Assembly (NCBI GenBank): GCA_018817645.1
Contig: JAHITK010000005.1
Coordinates: 1 to 58,893 of the forward strand
Reading direction: 5' to 3'
Source of the DNA: Patescibacteria group bacterium
GTDB taxonomy: Bacteria; Patescibacteriota; Minisyncoccia; Minisyncoccales; PEYH01
DNA length: 58,893 nt
Below are positions 8,964 through 33,659 of the stretch, in pieces. Made by a program: the position numbers and the translations under genes. Position 1 is the stretch's first letter; each line of letters begins with the position of its first letter. The notes under the pieces are model-generated. The model saw only the letters and a list, made by a program, of their open reading frames with translations. It made no database searches and had not been told where the DNA came from.

Positions 8964-9749
8964 ATGTCTGATTATTACAAAGCGAAAAGAGATTATAATT
9001 TTTTCAAGCCGGGGCAGCTAGGGGCGTTTAAGGTCAGCCGTTCAAAAATTAATTTATTTTTAGAATGCCCCCGGTGTTTTTATATGGACTGCCGGCTCGG
9101 CGTCAGCCGTCCGCCGGGCTTTCCGTTCACTTTAAACAGCGCGGTTGACAAGCTCTTAAAAAAAGAATTTGATATTCACCGAGGAGCTAAAACCACGCAT
9201 CCTTTAATGGAGGAATATGGCATTGAGGCGGTGCCGTTCCAAGACAAGCGGATTGACGAGTGGCGGGATACGAGGAGGGGAGTCCGATACCTTCACGAAC
9301 CGACCAATCTTTTGATAATGGGTGCGATTGATGATGTCTGGGTTAATCCGCAGGGAGAATTGCACATCGTGGATTACAAGGCGACCTCAAAGAACGGAGA
9401 AGTTACTTTGGATGCCCCGTGGCAAATTGGATACAAGAGACAGATGGAAGTTTATCAGTGGCTTTTCAGGCGAAATGAATTTAGTGTTTCTGATACAGGA
9501 TATTTTGTTTATTGTAACGGAAAAACCGATACAGAGGCATTTGATAAAAAGATTGAGTTTGAGGTTTCGGTTATCCCATATAAAGGAGATGACACTTGGG
9601 TAGAACAGGCGATTCACGACATTAAAGAATGTCTCGGGAAAGACACGATTCCGGAAATGGCGCAGGAATGCGATTATTGCAGTTACCGGAAAGCAGCTGC
9701 CCACGAGACCTACAAATTTTCAAAAAGAAATGATAAAGATTTCGCCTAA
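8964..9749 (+). CDS. PD-(D/E)XK nuclease family (RecB/Cas4-like)
   Basis: GAIDD...IVDYK, QMEVY; N-terminal CPRC and C-terminal CDYC. Confidence 0.85.
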   Translation: MSDYYKAKRDYNFFKPGQLGAFKVSRSKINLFLECPRCFYMDCRLGVSRPPGFPFTLNSAVDKLLKKEFDIHRGAKTTHPLMEEYGIEAVPFQDKRIDEWRDTRRGVRYLHEPTNLLIMGAIDDVWVNPQGELHIVDYKATSKNGEVTLDAPWQIGYKRQMEVYQWLFRRNEFSVSDTGYFVYCNGKTDTEAFDKKIEFEVSVIPYKGDDTWVEQAIHDIKECLGKDTIPEMAQECDYCSYRKAAAHETYKFSKRNDKDFA

Positions 9750-10395
9750 TTCTTTAAATCTGTATTTTGAATGTCCGCTTTGTTTTTGGCTGGAGAAGAA
9801 CAGAGGAATCAAAAGGCCCGCACCCTTTCCTTATGAATTAAATTTGGCGGTTGACGAGGTTTTAAGGCGGGACTTTGATAAACATAGAGCGAAAGGCGGA
9901 ACGCACCCATTGCTGGAAGCCAATAATATCCCGGCTAAACTTTTTCCCAATCAGAAACTTTTAAACGAATGGCGGAACAATTCCAAGGGATTAGAATATT
10001 ATGATGAAAAAACAGGGGCAGTCATTTTCGGGGTGCTGGATGATGTGCTGGATTTTGGGAAGGGAAAACTGGCGCCGTTTGATTATAAGTCAACCGGCAG
10101 CAGTGTGCCCAAGGTCTATGATCGGTTCCAGCTTCAGATGGATGTTTATACTTTTCTTTTGGAAAAAAATGGCTACGCCACTCCCAGAAAAGGCGTTTTA
10201 GTATTTTATATCGTTGATAAGGACAATTCTTTTGAGGACCGGCTGCCGTTCAAAAAAGAGATTCATATTATCGGCACCGACCCCTCTTACATTTCAAGAA
10301 TATTCAAAGAAGCAGTAAGGTTCTTAAAAAAGCCCGCGCCTCTGGCGCACAGCCCGGAATGCGAATTTGGCAGATGGGCTGAGATTATAAAATAA
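9730..10395 (+). CDS. PD-(D/E)XK nuclease family, tandem paralog
   Basis: GVLDD...PFDYK, QMDVY; N-terminal CPLC. Confidence 0.85.
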   Translation: MIKISPNSLNLYFECPLCFWLEKNRGIKRPAPFPYELNLAVDEVLRRDFDKHRAKGGTHPLLEANNIPAKLFPNQKLLNEWRNNSKGLEYYDEKTGAVIFGVLDDVLDFGKGKLAPFDYKSTGSSVPKVYDRFQLQMDVYTFLLEKNGYATPRKGVLVFYIVDKDNSFEDRLPFKKEIHIIGTDPSYISRIFKEAVRFLKKPAPLAHSPECEFGRWAEIIK

Positions 10396-16648: not shown

Positions 16649-17320
16649 TTGAAAACCGATAAGATTATGCAAGAGGCGCTGGGAAAAGTGTTGGCAGATT
16701 CAAAACTCTTCAAAGAGGTATTGACGGTGTTTCTGCAAAAAAGGAATCAAGTAATCGAAGCGTTGTCTGCCTTGCTGGAACAGGAACCGCAGCTCCGCGA
16801 AGAAGAGCCGATGTTGGAGGTGTTATTGTATGCGCTTCAGCACGGCGATGACCTATTCAACGATCCCTTGACAGAGGTTCGGGACAGGCGATTGCTTAAA
16901 GCTGGCGTGTATCGCGGGCTTCTGGCTGAAGCGCAGCGAGACAATGCTCCATTGAGTGCAGTGATCGTTGACATTAATGACTTCAAAGTCACGAACGATG
17001 TCTTTGGCCATACAGCTGGAGACAGAACACTAAAAGAGGTCGCTTCAATCCTTTCTCGGGAAGCGAGGCGAGGAACGGATGTTGTCATTCGCTACGGTGG
17101 GGATGAGTTCTTGCTCATTCTCCCTCACACAGACAGGAAGGGCGCATCTGCCTTGATGGAGCGCGTGACACAAGCCCTGGGGGCATTGGTTCCTAAGCTC
17201 TCTGTCAGCTTCGGCATTTCTTCCTGGGTTCCGGGAAGTGAGCCGATTGGCCTAACAGAGATGGCAGGAGAAGCCGACGAAGCGATGTACGTACAAAAGC
17301 GCGTCAAGTCGGCTTCTTGA
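16649..17320 (+). CDS. GGDEF-domain diguanylate cyclase
   Basis: DINDFK, ND.FGH.AGD, RYGGDEF; TTG start after AAGGAGG. Confidence 0.9.
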   Translation: MKTDKIMQEALGKVLADSKLFKEVLTVFLQKRNQVIEALSALLEQEPQLREEEPMLEVLLYALQHGDDLFNDPLTEVRDRRLLKAGVYRGLLAEAQRDNAPLSAVIVDINDFKVTNDVFGHTAGDRTLKEVASILSREARRGTDVVIRYGGDEFLLILPHTDRKGASALMERVTQALGALVPKLSVSFGISSWVPGSEPIGLTEMAGEADEAMYVQKRVKSAS

Positions 17321-17351: not shown

Positions 17352-17378
17352 CGGCGGAAGACCCTGTGTCTTCCGCCG
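17352..17378 (+). terminator. Intrinsic terminator CGGCGGAAGAC/GTCTTCCGCCG
   Basis: 11-bp stem followed by ATTCTTTTT. Confidence 0.8.
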
Positions 17379-17385
17379 ATTCTTT

Positions 17386-17413
17386 TTGCCCCCAGATTTA
17401 TATTATGCGACAT
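17386..17413 (+). other. Degenerate second dif-like site TTGCCCCCAGA-TTTATA-TTATGCGACAT
   Basis: Shares TATA-TTATGCGAC with 18574-18601. Confidence 0.3.
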
Positions 17414-17474
17414 CAATAAAGAAAAGGAATAAGGAAAGCGCAAGAACTATCAGGGCAGGGAATATGATTATATC

Positions 17475-18410
17475 TTAACCGTGATATTTGCGATGTATTT
17501 CTTTTAGATGAGGCCTGGTGACATGGGTGTAAATCTGCGTGGTGACAATATTCCGGTGTCCTAAAAATTCCTGCACAACCCTTAAATCAACGCCTTTCAT
17601 TAATAAATCAGTGGCAAAGCTGTGCCTTAATGTGTGCGGAGTCGTGGTTATGGGCAATCCGGCCCGCACAACATATTTTTTAATTATTCGTTCAATTGTC
17701 CGGGTAGTAATCCTTCCTTGGATTTTTGAGCCCCGATATGTCACAAACAAGGCCTTTTCTTTGTCTGCCCGTTTGGCAAGATATTGTTGGAGCCAATCAA
17801 TTGTTCTTTGGGACAGGAAAACGGTTCTTGGGTGGCCTCCTTTGCCGACGATGCCGATTTCCAAGTCCTTGGTGTTCAGTTTGATAGTTATTTGGTCCCG
17901 GTCAAGGGCTACCAATTCAGCGACCCTTAATCCGGTGGAGAATAAGGTTTCTAAAATTGTCCGATCCCTTAACCCGTTTATATCATTTACATCAGGAGCC
18001 GCTAAAAGTTTTTTAACCTGCTCTAAGGTGAGAAAATTAACGGTCCGTTCCTGCGATTGCTTGGCTAATTTTATTTTCTCCGGGGGCAGGGAAATGATGT
18101 CCTTATCGGCGAAATAGGTTAAAAGGGAGCGCAAGGCGATTAAATAGTAGTTCTGGGTATTTCTTTTCAGCGGTTTTTTATCTTTCTGGAGATATTGACG
18201 CGATAAAAATGTCTTATATTTGAAAATATGGTCCGGAGTCAACTGGTGGGGCCTAAGGTTTTCTAATTTGTTTATTTTTGACCATGCCAGAAATTTTTTT
18301 AAAAATCGGGAATAATTTTCCTGCGACTTGTAGGAAAGTCCTTTTTCAATATCAATCCAATCCAAAAAATCATTGATATGTTTTATAATTGGTTTTGTGG
18401 AATTTTGCAT
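17475..18410 (-). CDS. XerC/XerD-like tyrosine recombinase
   Basis: Catalytic residues in TGLRVAEL, GKG, HTLRH, LGH, TTQIY; no IntI-specific insertion apparent. Confidence 0.95.
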   Translation of the reverse strand: MQNSTKPIIKHINDFLDWIDIEKGLSYKSQENYSRFLKKFLAWSKINKLENLRPHQLTPDHIFKYKTFLSRQYLQKDKKPLKRNTQNYYLIALRSLLTYFADKDIISLPPEKIKLAKQSQERTVNFLTLEQVKKLLAAPDVNDINGLRDRTILETLFSTGLRVAELVALDRDQITIKLNTKDLEIGIVGKGGHPRTVFLSQRTIDWLQQYLAKRADKEKALFVTYRGSKIQGRITTRTIERIIKKYVVRAGLPITTTPHTLRHSFATDLLMKGVDLRVVQEFLGHRNIVTTQIYTHVTRPHLKEIHRKYHG

Positions 18411-18501
18411 ATATGTTATTTTTTAAAATTATGATAGGGAAGCATTTCGCGCGGCGTGGAGATGTCTGCTCTACATTATTGCGACCTTTATGACCGCAGG
18501 G

Positions 18502-18545
18502 CGCCATATTTTGCGACGTTTTAATGAATGTTGCAAAATATGGCG
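18502..18545. repeat. 19-bp imperfect inverted repeat in the xer leader
   Basis: CGCCATATTTTGCGACGTT-ttaatg-AATGTTGCAAAATATGGCG. Confidence 0.85.
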
Positions 18546-18573
18546 AAGCTTAATGGACAACAGAGTACTCTCG

Positions 18574-18601
18574 TTGTCCGTTAAGGTATATTATGCGACG
18601 A
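18574..18601 (+). other. Candidate dif site TTGTCCGTTAA-GGTATA-TTATGCGACGA
   Basis: 11-6-11 layout; core TAA-GGTATA-TTATG versus E. coli TAA-TGTATA-TTATG; next to xer at the gene-strand switch. Confidence 0.6.
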
Positions 18602-18611
18602 CCATATATCT

Positions 18612-18641
18612 ATGATAATCCCTTATAATAGGGCTTGTCAA
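18612..18641 (-). promoter_or_regulatory. Putative xer promoter TTGACA-N18-TATCAT
   Basis: Consensus match; predicted start abuts the dif-like site. Confidence 0.55.
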
Positions 18642-18709
18642 GAGGAAAAGTATGAAAAGTATGAAAATAATGTAGTCCCCCCGCTGATGTCCAAATATTT
18701 TTAAGGGGA

Positions 18710-19069
18710 TTAATCTATTCTGATTTCTTGATTTAAATAATTATTCAAATTATACCAGCTTTTATTAAACCAGGGTCTTGCCAAGCGATACCACCAAGCG
18801 CTGATTTTTTGCCCGGTATTTTCAAAAAATGACTTAAACCAGTCATTCCCCTCTCCAAATTGCTTTATTGTCTCAAAAGTCCCTTTTAGCCCTTCTTTTA
18901 TCCTTTGCCAGAATGATTGGGCATCCTCTATGCCTGGCAGAGAGACATTTGGTCCTGCGGTTGTCGCGTTTTGAGCTGATACAAAAGAGGCAAAGCAAGC
19001 ATTGCCGAATAATAACACGGCGCAAAACAGACCGCAAAGAAAGAATTTTAGACCACCCTCCCCTTTCAT
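18710..19069 (-). CDS. Secreted/membrane hypothetical protein
   Basis: Signal-peptide-like N-terminus, amphipathic helices. Confidence 0.6.
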   Translation of the reverse strand: MKGEGGLKFFLCGLFCAVLLFGNACFASFVSAQNATTAGPNVSLPGIEDAQSFWQRIKEGLKGTFETIKQFGEGNDWFKSFFENTGQKISAWWYRLARPWFNKSWYNLNNYLNQEIRID

Positions 19070-19079
19070 ATTTATTAAA

Positions 19080-20663
19080 TTATTGTAATTTTCCCTTGGC
19101 TTGTTTTAATCTTAGCAAAGTTTTTTCTTTTCCCAAAATTTCCGCTATGGCAAACGGCGGGGCTGATGATTTTTTTCCGGAAAGAGCCACTCTGAAAGGC
19201 CATAAAAGATAGCCCTTATCCCCTTCCGGCCCTGTCTCGGCCGCCTTTTTGACCAGAATTTCCTCAAGATTGCTTCTAGCCCAATCATTGGGCTTAATCG
19301 CCTCTATGACCCCTTCTAAGGCCTCTATCGCCCCTTTAATGTCTGGCTTTGTCATCTCTTTCCAAGAGAGCAGGTCCGGAGGGTAATCCAGTTCTTTTTT
19401 AAAGAAAAAATCAACCAATTCCGGCAATTCAGACAAGTATTTCAGCCGTTCTTGATATAGAGCAATAATATTCTCCAGCGCAATTGGGTCTATTTTTTCT
19501 TTGGTTTCCGGCATAAGATATATTTCCCCTATTTCCACTCCGCCTATGCCAGCCAGGTGTCCGCCGGTCTCAAAAATCGGCTGGATTAAGTTCGCGCTTA
19601 TCAGATAAGGAACGCATAATTCCATAAGCTTCTTGGGCGATTTATTGCGGATGTAAAAGCCGTTTATCCAATCAAGTTTTTGGATGTTAAAAATGGCTGA
19701 TGATTTTTGGCAGTGCTCTAAAGAAAACTCTTCCATCAAGTGATTGATGACGTATATTTCCCGGTCAGTGTCCGGATTCCATCCCAAGAAGGCCATAAAG
19801 TTTATCATTGCTTCCGGCAAATATCCTTTCTCCCTGTATTCATTAACCGAGACAGAGCCGTGCCTCTTGCTTAATTTACTTTTGTCAGAGCCGAGGATAA
19901 GAGGCAAATGCGCGTAATCCGGCTGAGGCAATCCGAGCGCTTCCTGTAAAAGAATCTGTTTTGGCGTATTGGGGAGATGGTCTTCGCCTCTGATGACATA
20001 ACTGATTTTCATTTCATAATCATCAATCACTGCTGCCAGATTATACAAAGGAATTTTCGGGTCTTTGGCAATAGTGATGTCTCCCAAGAGCGCGCCGTTG
20101 AACTCTATCTTCCCTTTTATCAGGTCCTGAAAAACCACATTTTGAGCCGGCGTTCTGAATCTAATGACCGCTGGTCTCCCTTCTTTTAGATATTGTTCCG
20201 CGGTTTCTTTTGAGAGATTACTGCATTTTCCGCTGTACTTTGGCGCTTGTCCGATACTCATCTGATATTGGCGCTGGGCTTCCAAGTCATCTTTACTGCA
20301 GAAGCAGTAATAAGCAGTCCCCTCTTCCAGCATCTTCCTGATATATGATTCGTAAATATCAATTCGCTCGCTTTGCCGGTAAGGGCCAAAATTCCCGATA
20401 TATTCTTTTGGGTCGTCAGGATTAATTCCTTCGTCCCAAAAGATTTTCAGCCATTTCAGGCCTTCCAGAATATCCTCTTCATATTCTTTTTGTGAACGCT
20501 CTTCATCCGTGTCTTCTATGCGCAAGATAAAACTGCCATTATATTTTTTGGCAAAAAGATAATTGAAAAGCGCGGTTCTCGCGGTTCCAATATGCAAAAG
20601 GCCGGTCGGCGAAGGCGCGATTCTTACTCTCGGATTTTCAATTTTTTTGGCAACTGCTTCCAT
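19080..20663 (-). CDS. gltX: Glutamate--tRNA ligase
   Basis: APSPTGLLHIG, RIEDTD, KLSKR. Confidence 0.97.
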   Translation of the reverse strand: MEAVAKKIENPRVRIAPSPTGLLHIGTARTALFNYLFAKKYNGSFILRIEDTDEERSQKEYEEDILEGLKWLKIFWDEGINPDDPKEYIGNFGPYRQSERIDIYESYIRKMLEEGTAYYCFCSKDDLEAQRQYQMSIGQAPKYSGKCSNLSKETAEQYLKEGRPAVIRFRTPAQNVVFQDLIKGKIEFNGALLGDITIAKDPKIPLYNLAAVIDDYEMKISYVIRGEDHLPNTPKQILLQEALGLPQPDYAHLPLILGSDKSKLSKRHGSVSVNEYREKGYLPEAMINFMAFLGWNPDTDREIYVINHLMEEFSLEHCQKSSAIFNIQKLDWINGFYIRNKSPKKLMELCVPYLISANLIQPIFETGGHLAGIGGVEIGEIYLMPETKEKIDPIALENIIALYQERLKYLSELPELVDFFFKKELDYPPDLLSWKEMTKPDIKGAIEALEGVIEAIKPNDWARSNLEEILVKKAAETGPEGDKGYLLWPFRVALSGKKSSAPPFAIAEILGKEKTLLRLKQAKGKLQ

Positions 20664-23077: not shown

Positions 23078-24441
23078 TTAGTGAATTGCTTAACGAATTT
23101 TTGGAATTGGTCTCCCCTGTCTTTGTAATTTTTAAATATCCCAAAACTGGCGCAGGCTGGCGACAAGGCGCAGATTTCTTTTGGTGCAGTGTATTGATAG
23201 CAAAACCTTACCGCCTCTTTCATATTGTCTACGAAGATAAATTTTGGCTTTTCGTCTGTTTCCCCCAAGGTCTCCATAACAGCTTGTTTAATCCTCTTTC
23301 CGGCCGGTGGGAAAATAATCGCTGTTTTAATCCGATGCTTAATGATTGTCTTAGCAAGCGCGGAGAAATTCAATCCCCTTTCGTGTCCTCCTAATATAAT
23401 AGTTCGAGGTTTAATCGCCTTGATGGCGCTTATGGCGGCAATCGGCTCGGTGGCAAAACTGTCGTCATAAAAAATGATTTCTTTGAATTTTCCTATTCTT
23501 TGCAGGCAATGCTTTTGGGTTCGGTAATGAGCGATTGATTTTCTGATTTTAGGGAGAGGAATATTGAATAACCGGGCAGCGCAGACAGCCGCCATTATGT
23601 CGTAGAGGAAGTGTTCTCCTGGCAGGTGAATGTCTTTTAATTTTATAACCCTTTTACCTTGGTAAAATATGGCCTCCTGGTTGAAATAGCAGTCATTTGA
23701 ATTATCCTTGCCAAAAGCGATTTTTTTGGCTTTGGTTTTTCCCGCCAAGGTTCTCAAGCGGGGAGAATCAGAATTGAAGATAAAGAAATCGTCCTTTTTC
23801 TGCCAAAGAGTGATATTCTTTTTTGCCGCAAAATATTCCTCGATGTCTTTGTAATAATCCAGATGAGCTTCGTGGGCGTTCAGGAATATGGCGATATGGG
23901 GGCTGGTTCCGAGGTCCTCTAATTGTTGGGAGGATATTTCAAAAATGAATGTTTTTTTGGATTTTCCGTCTTTAAAATAATTTAAAACCGGCTTCCCGAT
24001 ATTTCCGATAAGCTCTGCCTCCCGATGGCTTTCTTCAAAAATTTTAGAAAGCAAACTTACGGTCGTCCCCTTGCCTTTGGTGCCGGTTACGCCGATGGTC
24101 TGTTGAGAGTAATTTTGCAGAAAAATGTCGGTTTGCGAAGTAGTAGTTTGCTTCCCGGAAACATAGGGCGCGAATATTTTTTTCGGGAGGCCCGGGGTCT
24201 TGATTATAACCTCGTAATCCCCTATTGATTTCAAATAATCTTTCCCTAAATGCAGTTTTATGTTCTCATCCTTTTTTATTTTCCTTTTCAGCGTTTTTGC
24301 CAATTCTTTGAATTCTGATTTGTCTGCCAGGCCAATGATTTTGTCAAAGAAAATCTTCCGCAGGAATTTAAAACTTGACTCCCCTTCCCGGCCAAGCCCC
24401 AAAATCAAAATCTTTTTGTTTTTCAGTAAATTTATCCTCAC
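23074..24441 (-). CDS. murD: MurD ligase (probably MurD2, L-Glu-adding)
   Basis: GLGREG, GVTGTKGKGT, SPACASF; murL nearby. Confidence 0.9.
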   Translation of the reverse strand: MRINLLKNKKILILGLGREGESSFKFLRKIFFDKIIGLADKSEFKELAKTLKRKIKKDENIKLHLGKDYLKSIGDYEVIIKTPGLPKKIFAPYVSGKQTTTSQTDIFLQNYSQQTIGVTGTKGKGTTVSLLSKIFEESHREAELIGNIGKPVLNYFKDGKSKKTFIFEISSQQLEDLGTSPHIAIFLNAHEAHLDYYKDIEEYFAAKKNITLWQKKDDFFIFNSDSPRLRTLAGKTKAKKIAFGKDNSNDCYFNQEAIFYQGKRVIKLKDIHLPGEHFLYDIMAAVCAARLFNIPLPKIRKSIAHYRTQKHCLQRIGKFKEIIFYDDSFATEPIAAISAIKAIKPRTIILGGHERGLNFSALAKTIIKHRIKTAIIFPPAGKRIKQAVMETLGETDEKPKFIFVDNMKEAVRFCYQYTAPKEICALSPACASFGIFKNYKDRGDQFQKFVKQFTK

Positions 24442-31150: not shown

Positions 31151-31301
31151 AATTTGATGCGTTAGGTTAAGGTTAGATTATTTTTTTTTGACTGATTTTA
31201 GAAGTTTGGAATGTTTATTTATTTTACACGAAATCAAAAAAAATGCCAGCGCAAGTATTGGGTATATTGAGAAAATTTTAAGTTCTGGTAGAATAAAGAA
31301 T

Positions 31302-33659
31302 ATGCAGAAACAATACGATTTCAAAAAACAAGAGTTGAAATGGCAAAAATTCTGGGAAAAAGAGAATTTGTATAAATTCAACCCTAAAAAATCAGGAAAG
31401 ATTTTTTCCATTGACACCGACCCTCCCACTTTAAGCGGGAAAATGCATATTGGCCATGTTTCTTCTTATAGCCACGAAGACATCATCGCCCGCTATCATA
31501 GAATGAAGGGAGAGAATGTCTACTTCCCCTTTGGCGTTGACAACAACGGTCTGGCTACGGAGAGAATGGTTGAGTCAATCAACGGAGTTACTTTATTTGA
31601 GGTTGGCAGAAAGAATTTTGTTCAGCTTTGTCAAAAAACGATTAGCAAAGTTTTGCCGGATTTTGTCTCCGGCTGGAAAAGAGTGGGCGTATCCTGCGAT
31701 TTTTCCAATATTTATTCCACTATCAGCCCGGCGGTGCAAAAAATCAGCCAACAGCATTTTTTGGAACTTTTTGGACAAGGCAGGATATATCAAAAAGAAT
31801 CCCCTACTCTTTTTTGCCCGGCTTGCCAGACCGCCATTGCGCAGGCAGAACTGGAAGACAAGGAGGAGCAAAGCGTTTTCAATGACATATATTTTGAACT
31901 GGAAGACGGGCGGACGATAATAATTTCTACTACCCGGCCCGAATTGTTGGCAAGCTGTGTGGCTGTTTTTGTCCATCCCCGGGACAAAAGACACAAGGAT
32001 TTAATCGGCAAAACCGCTATAGTCCCAATTTTTGGGCAGAAGGTTAAAATTATGGCAGACGACAAAGTGGATAAAGAAAAAGGAAGCGGAATCGTAATGT
32101 GCTGTACTTTCGGAGATACGACTGATTTGGATTGGTATTTCAAACATAATTTGCCCTTGAGGATATCAATCACCAAGCAAGGCGAACTTAATGACTTGGC
32201 GGGCGAGTTCAAGGGTTTTTCAATTAAAGCGGCACGCAAGATGATTTTGGAAAAACTAAAAGAAAAGGGCCAACTAATTTCTCAAAAAACCATTGAGCAT
32301 TCGGTCAATGTTCATGAGCGATGCGGAACGGAGATAGAAATACTGCCCACCAAGCAGTGGTTTATTAAGTATCTTGATTTGAAGGAGCAGTTTTTGAAAC
32401 AATCGGGCAAATTGAATTGGTATCCTAAGTATATGAAAATCCGATTGGATAACTGGATTAAAGGATTACGCTGGGATTGGTGCGTTTCCAGGCAGAGATA
32501 TTTCGGCATTCCCATACCAATTTGGCATTGCAAAAAATGCGGGAAAATAATTTTGCCTTCAGTTAAGGACTTACCAATTGACCCGCTTCACTCAAACCCC
32601 ACCAAGAAGTGCAGTTGCGGCAGCAGCGAGTTTATCCCGGAAACAGATGTCTTGGATACTTGGGCCACCAGCTCTCTTTCCCCGCAAATTGCCTTATCTT
32701 TAGTAAAAAACAAAGAGACAAAGGGAACGATGTTTCCAATGTCTTTAAGGCCGCAAGCCCATGATATTATCAACTTTTGGCTGTTTTACACCTTAGCTCG
32801 TTCTTCCTTGCATTACAAAAAACTTCCCTGGCGCGATGTCTTTATTTCCGGCCACGTGCTTGACTCCAAAGGAGAAAAAATGGCAAAGTCAAAAGGCAAT
32901 GCAGTGGATCCCGAAGCAATTTTAGAAAAATACGGCACTGACGCGGTTCGTTATTGGGCCAGCCAAGCAAGAATGGGAGATGACTTCCGGTTCAGCGAAG
33001 AAGAAATCCAGCAAGGGAAAAGGACCGCCACCAAGATTTGGAACGCTTCCCGGTTCGCGCTTATGCATTTGACAAATTATGCGCTGAAGGACAGCGATGC
33101 CAAAAACTTGGAAGATGAAGACAAGTGGATTTTCACGAAATTAAACAGGGCTATTAAGGATTATGCGGCTAAAATGGATTCTTACGAATATCCGAGAGCC
33201 AAGGAGATTATAGACGGCTTTTTCTGGAATGATTTCTGCAACAATTATCTTGAGATTGTGAAGGCAAGGGTTTACGAGCCGGAGAACAAACAAACTTTGA
33301 AAGCAGCTCAATTTACGATTTACAAAGTGGTTTTAGGGATATTAAAACTCTATGCCCCATTTATGCCTTTTGTCACCGAAGAAGTGTATCAGGATTATTT
33401 CCGGAAAACAGAAAAAACAAAAAGCATCCATTTGACGCTTTTGCCGGAGCCGGAGAAAAAATTTGATTTCCCGGCTATTGCCAGCGATTTTGAAACAGCG
33501 ATTGACGCTATTGTCCAAATTAGGAAATATAAATCCGAACATCAACTCTCCATGAAAGCAGAACTTGGCGAAGTTTCAATCAAAGTCAAAAACAAGGGGA
33601 AAATAAAAAAATACTTGCCATTGATCAGCAAACTAATGTCAGTGAAAAAAATTGAGTAA
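31302..33659 (+). CDS. valS: Valine--tRNA ligase, short type without C-terminal coiled coil
   Basis: HIGH, DWCVSRQR, KMAKS. Confidence 0.93.
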   Translation: MQKQYDFKKQELKWQKFWEKENLYKFNPKKSGKIFSIDTDPPTLSGKMHIGHVSSYSHEDIIARYHRMKGENVYFPFGVDNNGLATERMVESINGVTLFEVGRKNFVQLCQKTISKVLPDFVSGWKRVGVSCDFSNIYSTISPAVQKISQQHFLELFGQGRIYQKESPTLFCPACQTAIAQAELEDKEEQSVFNDIYFELEDGRTIIISTTRPELLASCVAVFVHPRDKRHKDLIGKTAIVPIFGQKVKIMADDKVDKEKGSGIVMCCTFGDTTDLDWYFKHNLPLRISITKQGELNDLAGEFKGFSIKAARKMILEKLKEKGQLISQKTIEHSVNVHERCGTEIEILPTKQWFIKYLDLKEQFLKQSGKLNWYPKYMKIRLDNWIKGLRWDWCVSRQRYFGIPIPIWHCKKCGKIILPSVKDLPIDPLHSNPTKKCSCGSSEFIPETDVLDTWATSSLSPQIALSLVKNKETKGTMFPMSLRPQAHDIINFWLFYTLARSSLHYKKLPWRDVFISGHVLDSKGEKMAKSKGNAVDPEAILEKYGTDAVRYWASQARMGDDFRFSEEEIQQGKRTATKIWNASRFALMHLTNYALKDSDAKNLEDEDKWIFTKLNRAIKDYAAKMDSYEYPRAKEIIDGFFWNDFCNNYLEIVKARVYEPENKQTLKAAQFTIYKVVLGILKLYAPFMPFVTEEVYQDYFRKTEKTKSIHLTLLPEPEKKFDFPAIASDFETAIDAIVQIRKYKSEHQLSMKAELGEVSIKVKNKGKIKKYLPLISKLMSVKKIE

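Follow-up and report, generated by a model that had tools for sequence, protein, structure and literature searches.

A putative single-recombinase Xer/dif module at the probable replication terminus of a Parcubacteria genome

We have analyzed a stretch of 58,893 bases (the window from here on) that makes up the whole of contig C15 of a 665 kb genome, assembled in 28 contigs and with a completeness estimate of 100%. On account of its genome size and its relatives, the genome is placed in the Patescibacteria, also called Candidate Phyla Radiation (CPR), within the Parcubacteria, and is Minisyncoccales-like. The window carries the gene of one recombinase of the Xer group and, directly in front of it, a 28-bp site of the dif type. 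Our analysis indicates, with a probability that we put at about 85%, that the two form a module for chromosome dimer resolution at the replication terminus. The parts of the locus on which the argument turns are the following.

17475 to 18410, - strand: xer, whose product is a Xer-group tyrosine recombinase of 311 aa
18574 to 18601, - strand: dif-type site with an 11-6-11 layout, recognized by weight matrix, conservation and skew switch
18612 to 18641, - strand: predicted xer promoter, with the -35 box TTGACA at 18641-18636, a spacer of 18 nt and the -10 box TATCAT at 18617-18612
17399 to 17413, - strand: conserved half-site ATGTCGCATAATATA, a left arm with the first bases of the centre and without the right arm

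Orthologous loci were oriented on xer, 30 of them coming from a genome search and 40 from named public genomes. The labels of these relatives are Minisyncoccales, Staskawiczbacteria, Nealsonbacteria, Wildermuthbacteria and Parcubacteria group. All counts of sites refer to 56 distinct loci. The closed relatives used were two, G055 and G056, and the scans of whole genomes for the site covered these and the source genome.

The xer gene is the sole match to PF00589 found by profile search in the genome, and most of 60 relatives likewise have one recombinase match. Its product contains the Phage_integrase catalytic domain of Pfam (140.8 bits) together with a SAM-like N-terminal domain, and in the alignment to XerD of Escherichia coli (1a0p) the catalytic set is complete: R162, K190, H259, R262, H285 and Y294. 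The scores against the NCBIfam models for XerD, XerC and XerA were similar, with 226.7 bits for XerD, 215.8 for XerC and 198 for XerA, all of them under the equivalog cut-offs. The best match in the PDB was 4a8e, named XerC-like, and the match to XerH (5jjv) was weak, with an E value of 1.7e-14. The identity of Xer drops with taxonomic distance, which argues that the xer type of the source genome is inherited vertically, within a conserved synteny.

Read on the + strand, the dif-type site is TTGTCCGTTAA GGTATA TTATGCGACGA. In the direction of xer it has the left arm TCGTCGCATAA (18601-18591), the centre TATACC (18590-18585) and the right arm TTAACGGACAA (18584-18574). Under a weight matrix built from the first hits among the oriented loci it scored 38 bits, the runner-up in the source genome reaching 14 bits. 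Each of the three genomes that were scanned whole has the 28-mer once only, with no other site above 14 bits. A matching 28-mer was found 5' of the orthologous xer, on the xer strand, in 49 of the 56 loci, at a median distance of 32 nt from the ATG (range 2-163). The consensus AnkTCGCATAA-TnwAnS-TTAAnCGAmnT is dyad-symmetric, positions 4, 5, 10 and 11 of one arm mirroring positions 25, 24, 19 and 18 of the other. A first-pass annotation of this DNA had read from the letters an 11-6-11 dif-like site, a single Xer gene and a TTGACA-N18-TATCAT promoter before the site, and had taken them as a one-gene Xer/dif module. What had been read from the letters has held, as has the conservation of the 28-mer in front of orthologous genes, and the reading as a module is strongly supported.

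The locus is very probably the replication terminus of this genome, as judged from nucleotide skew. The cumulative GC skew of nearly all contigs is monotonic, and among the large ones C15 alone has a clear internal switch from + to - and a skew maximum. In the window, the best two-segment change point of the GC skew is at 18670, the AT-skew maximum is at 17462 and the cumulative GC skew has a local maximum of 1336 at about 18600. The closed relatives give the same picture. In G055, dif (29666) is 80 bp away from the maximum of the detrended skew (29586), and dnaA, at 304 kb, is at the minimum (302.7 kb). In G056, 2.9 kb separate dif (493734) from the maximum (496613), and dnaA (193 kb) is near the minimum (209.6 kb). 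In nine further contigs (56-198 kb), with change points computed in segments of 30-40 kb, the change from + to - was found 12 to 1573 bp from dif in every case. Taking the 12 genomes tested, dif was within 80 bp to 2.9 kb of the skew maximum or change point in all of them. The genes also converge directly behind xer in almost all loci. In the window, the last long open reading frame (ORF) on the + strand is a GGDEF gene that ends at 17320, and from xer (17475) onward the long ORFs are on the - strand, with 31188-33659 as the single exception. Both the flip of the coding strand and the terminus had been proposed by the first-pass annotation, and both are borne out.

Some observations weigh against this placement of the terminus. 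The absolute maximum of the cumulative GC skew in the window is at 24197 (1353) and not at 18600, the two peaks differing by only 17 counts. The predicted cumulative maximum near 18.6 kb was therefore right for the change point and the local peak and wrong for the absolute maximum. Besides, skew and gene orientation are correlated and are not independent evidence within some 2 kb. Finally, dnaA of the source genome (contig C1, 30521-31006) is found at a place without a skew switch and so does not give the position of the origin. The only clear switch from - to + in the genome is on contig C5, with its minimum at 9519. The origin and dnaA of the source genome may be separated, or contigs may be misjoined.

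The octamer GGGNAGGG had also been reported to change strand at this point. The copies listed are present, and there are further copies on the + strand at 10057, 12214 and 30569, the last one being a second counter-example. This makes 7 concordant and 2 discordant copies in the window, and base composition alone accounts for it. As an FtsK-orienting polar sequence (KOPS) the octamer fails. Its ratio of leading to lagging strand in the genome is 54:37, a smaller bias than the 2.7:1 of all octamers of like composition (six Gs plus an A and an N) taken together. The ratios in the closed relatives were 48:8 and 24:7, against about 3:1 in the composition control. A composition-corrected search for skewed octamers in the source genome and the two closed relatives gave no common candidate.

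Of 12 consensus positions the predicted xer promoter fits 11, and no other site between 17200 and 18800 looks more like a promoter. There are 10 nt from its end to the 28-mer, and the predicted transcription start is about 4 nt before dif. Among the orthologous loci, 33 of 49 have TTGACA (with at most one mismatch) starting 39-42 nt before the 28-mer and followed by a -10 box like TATTAT, the form across the relatives being cTTGACA-N17/18-TATTAT. The spacing from this predicted promoter to dif is fixed across genera. In most relatives dif would thus be transcribed as about +4 to +31 of the xer message, behind a promoter of the sigma-70 type, and Xer sitting on dif would hinder the transcription of its own gene. 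A fixed spacing suits such autorepression, which makes it plausible from the geometry of promoter and dif. The 18-nt spacer of the source promoter includes a short palindrome, CCCT..AGGG. Palindromes with stems of 4-8 bp are also found in the 17-18 nt spacers of relatives (L007-L035 and L096-L127), where the sequence varies and the pairing is kept, with a mean z-score against shuffled sequences of -2.2 over 41 loci. They may represent a promoter element that is sensitive to structure, or else the terminator of the small ORF upstream, which would then overlap with the promoter.

The same geometry could be read in another way, with the 28-mer as nothing but an operator of xer, used by Xer itself or by some other protein, and the true site of dimer resolution elsewhere in the genome or nonexistent. 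The position at +4 to +31 and the fixed spacing would be expected of an operator. The 28-mer has, however, the full 11-6-11 architecture of a dif with both arms conserved, no other candidate exceeds 14 bits in the source genome, G055 or G056, the site coincides with the skew switch in all 12 genomes tested, and its arms switch along with the type of recombinase, as described next. We consider a mere operator very improbable.

In 10 of the 60 relatives the best Xer match was only 30-36% identical, and we have examined seven of these loci, one in a congener (G003) and six in other relatives. Their recombinase, which we call type 2, is 33-35% identical to the Xer of the source genome and follows gltX in all seven loci, as xer does in the source genome. 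The comparison with G003 is the clearest. Its GltX has 82% identity to that of the source genome, and with the small ORF, the GGDEF gene and a DUF3298 gene all in place the synteny is complete. The promoter can be aligned with that of the source genome as far as dif. The dif of G003, ATGAGTATAA-TATCCC-TTACACTCAT, differs in its arms and is alike in the inner arm bases and the centre. After it comes a complete Xer-like recombinase, 33% identical to that of the source genome, and homology resumes at the terminator hairpin behind xer. A different xer with dif arms of its own, in the same slot and behind the same promoter, argues that xer and the putative dif are replaced together as one unit. Both types are present in genera g1, g2, g3 and g7. 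Recent horizontal transfer of type 2 was considered and left no signal, since the type-2 proteins are 62-82% identical between genera.

The half-site is located 62 nt past the xer stop, between the convergent genes and in direct orientation with dif. The two share the 13-mer TATATTATGCGAC, at 17399-17411 and 18587-18599, which confirms the second copy, 1188 bp away across xer, that the first-pass annotation had pointed out. As GTCGCATAATAT has exactly two copies in the whole 665-kb genome, both of them flanking xer, this is not a chance repeat. Searching for ATGTCGCATAATAT with at most 2 mismatches, on the xer strand and no more than 300 nt past the xer stop, we found the half-site conserved in 19 of the 56 loci, against about 0.5 expected from its frequency in the flanks. 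The family to which the window belongs has it in 16 of 17 loci, with 16 bases kept, and in one closed relative it stands 303 nt past the stop. The conservation ends abruptly after some 16 bases, and the intergenic DNA around it cannot be aligned between genera. As a polar motif spread over the genome the half-site was rejected, GTCGCAYAAT having 3 copies per closed genome and GTCGCATAA 3 copies in the source genome.

A decaying scar without function, left by a duplication or an old recombination, would explain why the right arm is missing and why many relatives at the level of the order lack the half-site. It would also suit the seven type-2 loci examined, G003 among them, in all of which a half-site was searched for and none was found. 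We consider a scar unlikely all the same. The 16 bases have been kept in 16 of 17 loci of the family next to intergenic DNA that is unalignable between genera, and the background of the motif is only about 0.009 per 300 nt. Moreover, the half-site shows stronger conservation than the left arm of dif, and the two do not vary together, so that gene conversion is no explanation. In loci of the Staskawiczbacteria type, for their part, dif is flanked on either side by similar one-arm sites whose polarity is mirrored. The more specific idea of a scar from insertion at dif was rejected on orientation and conservation, because a simple insertion there would leave remnants in the opposite orientation.

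The evidence thus supports a half-site under selection, as far as the comparison of loci can tell. Most likely it would bind one further Xer monomer. What such binding would achieve we can suggest only with low confidence: the half-site may serve as an auxiliary operator, as a partner in a loop, or as a landing pad with a polarity, placed precisely where the replichores meet. The function is a guess without an established precedent, a point that counts against our account. In the accessible parts of the Xer review PMC5357621 we found no case of a single-arm site conserved over family-level time.

The one-arm sites of the Staskawiczbacteria type, TGTCGCAYAATAA, were seen in L110, L112, L113, L116, L119, L120, L122 and L124. 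Downstream of xer they are on the xer strand (+33 to +2296), and upstream they are on the opposite strand, at 440-1440 nt. Distances of about 600-700 nt between them are frequent, as though they bounded small modules.

With direct repeats of the left arm and centre flanking xer, with a xer-dif unit that is exchanged whole in some relatives, and with contigs of metagenome-assembled genomes (MAGs) that often break beside xer, the locus could be taken for a small integrative element inserted at or near the terminus, of the kind of the integrative mobile elements exploiting Xer (IMEX), pdif-modules or minimal integrases. The sites would then be attachment junctions. Against this, xer is the only recombinase of the genome, synteny extends over the whole order and inheritance is vertical. 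The flanks are also unequal, a full 28-mer on one side and a half-site on the other, the latter conserved for family-level time. Insertion at dif would leave a remnant of either arm on that arm's own side, left on left or right on right. What we see is a copy of the left arm on the side of the right one, which is wrong for such an insertion if we reason from the standard scheme of strand exchange. The combination of variable presence, two bounding Xer sites and an empty site in relatives by which IMEX and pdif-modules are known is not what we found. Such an element is, in our judgment, a very unlikely explanation. The acquisition of the module as a dif cassette, which the first-pass annotation had entertained, survives in part: the xer-dif unit can apparently be replaced as a whole, but the type of the source genome is vertical and the flanking sites are misoriented for scars.

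The breaks in MAG contigs deserve a description of their own. Contig ends were unusually frequent within about 200 nt of the xer 3' end, inside xer or at its start, in about 8-10 of some 75 loci, against a chance estimate of about 3%. The cases are G025:C7, G021:C1, G017:C59, G037:C13, G058:C8/C13, G002:C22, JAHIVD010000064.1 and JACOVZ010000013.1. This suggests strain heterogeneity or a feature at the terminus that breaks assemblies. Some relatives have two adjacent recombinase genes (G007:C3:63844-66145 and G027:C66:160-2480), which are 43-46% and 34-35% identical to Xer, their first ORFs having 465-492 aa.

The rest of the locus consists of the leader of xer and of its neighbours on either side.

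18411 to 18573, - strand: genus-specific xer leader, with a layout common to congeners G001 and, partly, G004
18710 to 20663, - strand: gltX (19080-20663) and a small ORF, the conserved neighbours 5' of xer
17352 to 17378, + strand: hairpin with a stem of 11 pairs and a run of T after it, the terminator of the convergent GGDEF gene

Within the leader, an inverted copy resembling dif is found on the + strand, at 18530-18561 (GTTGCAAAATATGGCGAAGCTTAATGGACAAC), with a centre of 12 nt that is longer than that of dif. On the xer strand there are two further boxes like the left arm, GTCGCAAAATAT at 18506-18517 and GTCGCAATAATGT at 18473-18485. Inverted copies of the right arm also occur 3' of dif in unrelated lineages (L032, L114, L116, L120 and L124). 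The Rfam scan of the whole window returned one tRNA only, and the leader was without a match.

The order of gltX, small ORF, promoter-dif-xer and convergent genes is kept across the whole taxonomic order. The small ORF (18710-19069, - strand), between gltX and the xer promoter, codes for 119 aa and had no match in Pfam or to a family. Its position is kept across the family, with identities of 22-75%. The two gene orientations meet at the hairpin at 17352-17378, which is kept in congeners with either type of xer.

We therefore return to dimer resolution as the reading that we favor. Xer monomers would occupy both arms of dif, and the two difs of a dimeric chromosome would be synapsed at the septum and recombined there, probably under the control of FtsK. 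The gene for FtsK is on contig C21, with the alpha, motor and gamma domains present. The recombinase and its site would evolve together and be replaced together.

A wider reading would count the system of the Parcubacteria as a fourth or fifth kind among those with a single Xer recombinase, with functional one-armed sites near dif and with promoter-dif-xer, in some cases followed by the half-site, as an exchangeable allele. The one-armed sites would serve single Xer monomers as landing pads with a polarity, and would mark precisely where the replichores join. Such pads might stop or unload FtsK, replication forks or convergent transcription, or act as a loop partner that sets the expression of xer. 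At least two incompatible pairs of recombinase and site would persist in one chromosomal slot within single genera. We regard this as rather unlikely.

A large share of bacterial diversity belongs to the CPR/Patescibacteria, and their chromosome biology is almost unstudied. A 28-bp consensus beside a single-copy gene provides a terminus marker for fragmented MAGs, of use for orienting contigs, checking assemblies and estimating growth rate from coverage. The layout of promoter, dif and gene offers a clean natural case in which the substrate of a recombinase is likely its operator as well. The two xer-dif pairs of one slot are matched pairs for the study of how arm recognition and protein evolve together.

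Compared with what is known of Xer systems, the function is probably ordinary, dimer resolution at the terminus, and the form is one that we have not found described for CPR/Patescibacteria; our search of the literature found no published definition of a dif site for them. As in Xer/dif systems in general, we find the R-K-H-R-H-Y set, inverted 11-bp arms in a single copy, with a centre inside the 6-8 bp of such sites, and a position at the terminus. Coupling to FtsK is represented here only by the gene for an FtsK with a gamma domain. The Xer-related simple tyrosine recombinases of candidate phyla have been set apart as a subgroup of their own, 'Cand' (Smyshlyaev et al., 2021, PMC8138268), to which the Xer of this locus probably belongs. 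As far as the available text of that paper goes, it classifies the proteins only, with no site, position or module structure.

The XerCD/dif system of E. coli and Bacillus subtilis is alike in the 11-6-11 layout, the terminus position and the FtsK gamma domain. The left arm TCGCATAA is close to the XerC-side arm of the E. coli dif, GCGCATAA. The differences are that XerCD consists of two paralogues with one arm each, whereas there is one PF00589 match here, with scores under the XerC and XerD cut-offs; that the gene adjoins the site; that the right arm mirrors the left one and is not of the XerD type; and that there is no KOPS-like excess of GGGNAGGG.

Single recombinases that form a module with an adjacent site have precedents in XerS/difSL, XerH/difH and some archaeal XerA systems, according to the accessible parts of PMC5357621. 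A dimer-resolution system in Legionellales is the subject of a preprint (bioRxiv 10.1101/2021.09.12.459815). XerS/difSL of streptococci and lactococci (PMC2965235; PMC5357621, in the parts available) resembles the locus in having one recombinase, a site directly 5' of the gene, a terminus position and FtsK. However, XerS has about 356 aa against the 311 of our protein, which scored 106.8 on the XerS model NF003462 (cut-off 267), and difSL has 31 bp with an 11-bp centre against 28 bp and 11-6-11. In what PMC5357621 says of XerS, as far as its text was at hand, we found no mention of a fixed spacing between promoter and site, of a half-site or of two module types per slot. XerH/difH of Helicobacter and Campylobacter (PMC3325230, PMC5241119) shares the single recombinase, the dif near the gene and two differing arms that could order strand cleavage, and departs from the locus in its weak protein similarity, its other arms and its other phylum. 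Archaeal XerA/dif, as presented in the accessible sections of PMC5357621, is alike in its single recombinase of similar length, with a similarity nearly as high as that to XerC/D, and in a 28-bp near-palindromic site that forms a module with the gene in some species. It differs in that the protein of the locus stays under the cut-off of the XerA model NF040815 (198 bits against 220) and the host is bacterial. The same sections place XerA dif sites mostly not opposite the origin and do not mention FtsK, whereas the site described here is at the skew maximum of a genome with an FtsK that has a gamma domain. What goes beyond the known single-recombinase systems is the fixed spacing between promoter and dif, the one-arm site behind the gene and the two pairs of recombinase and site that share one slot.

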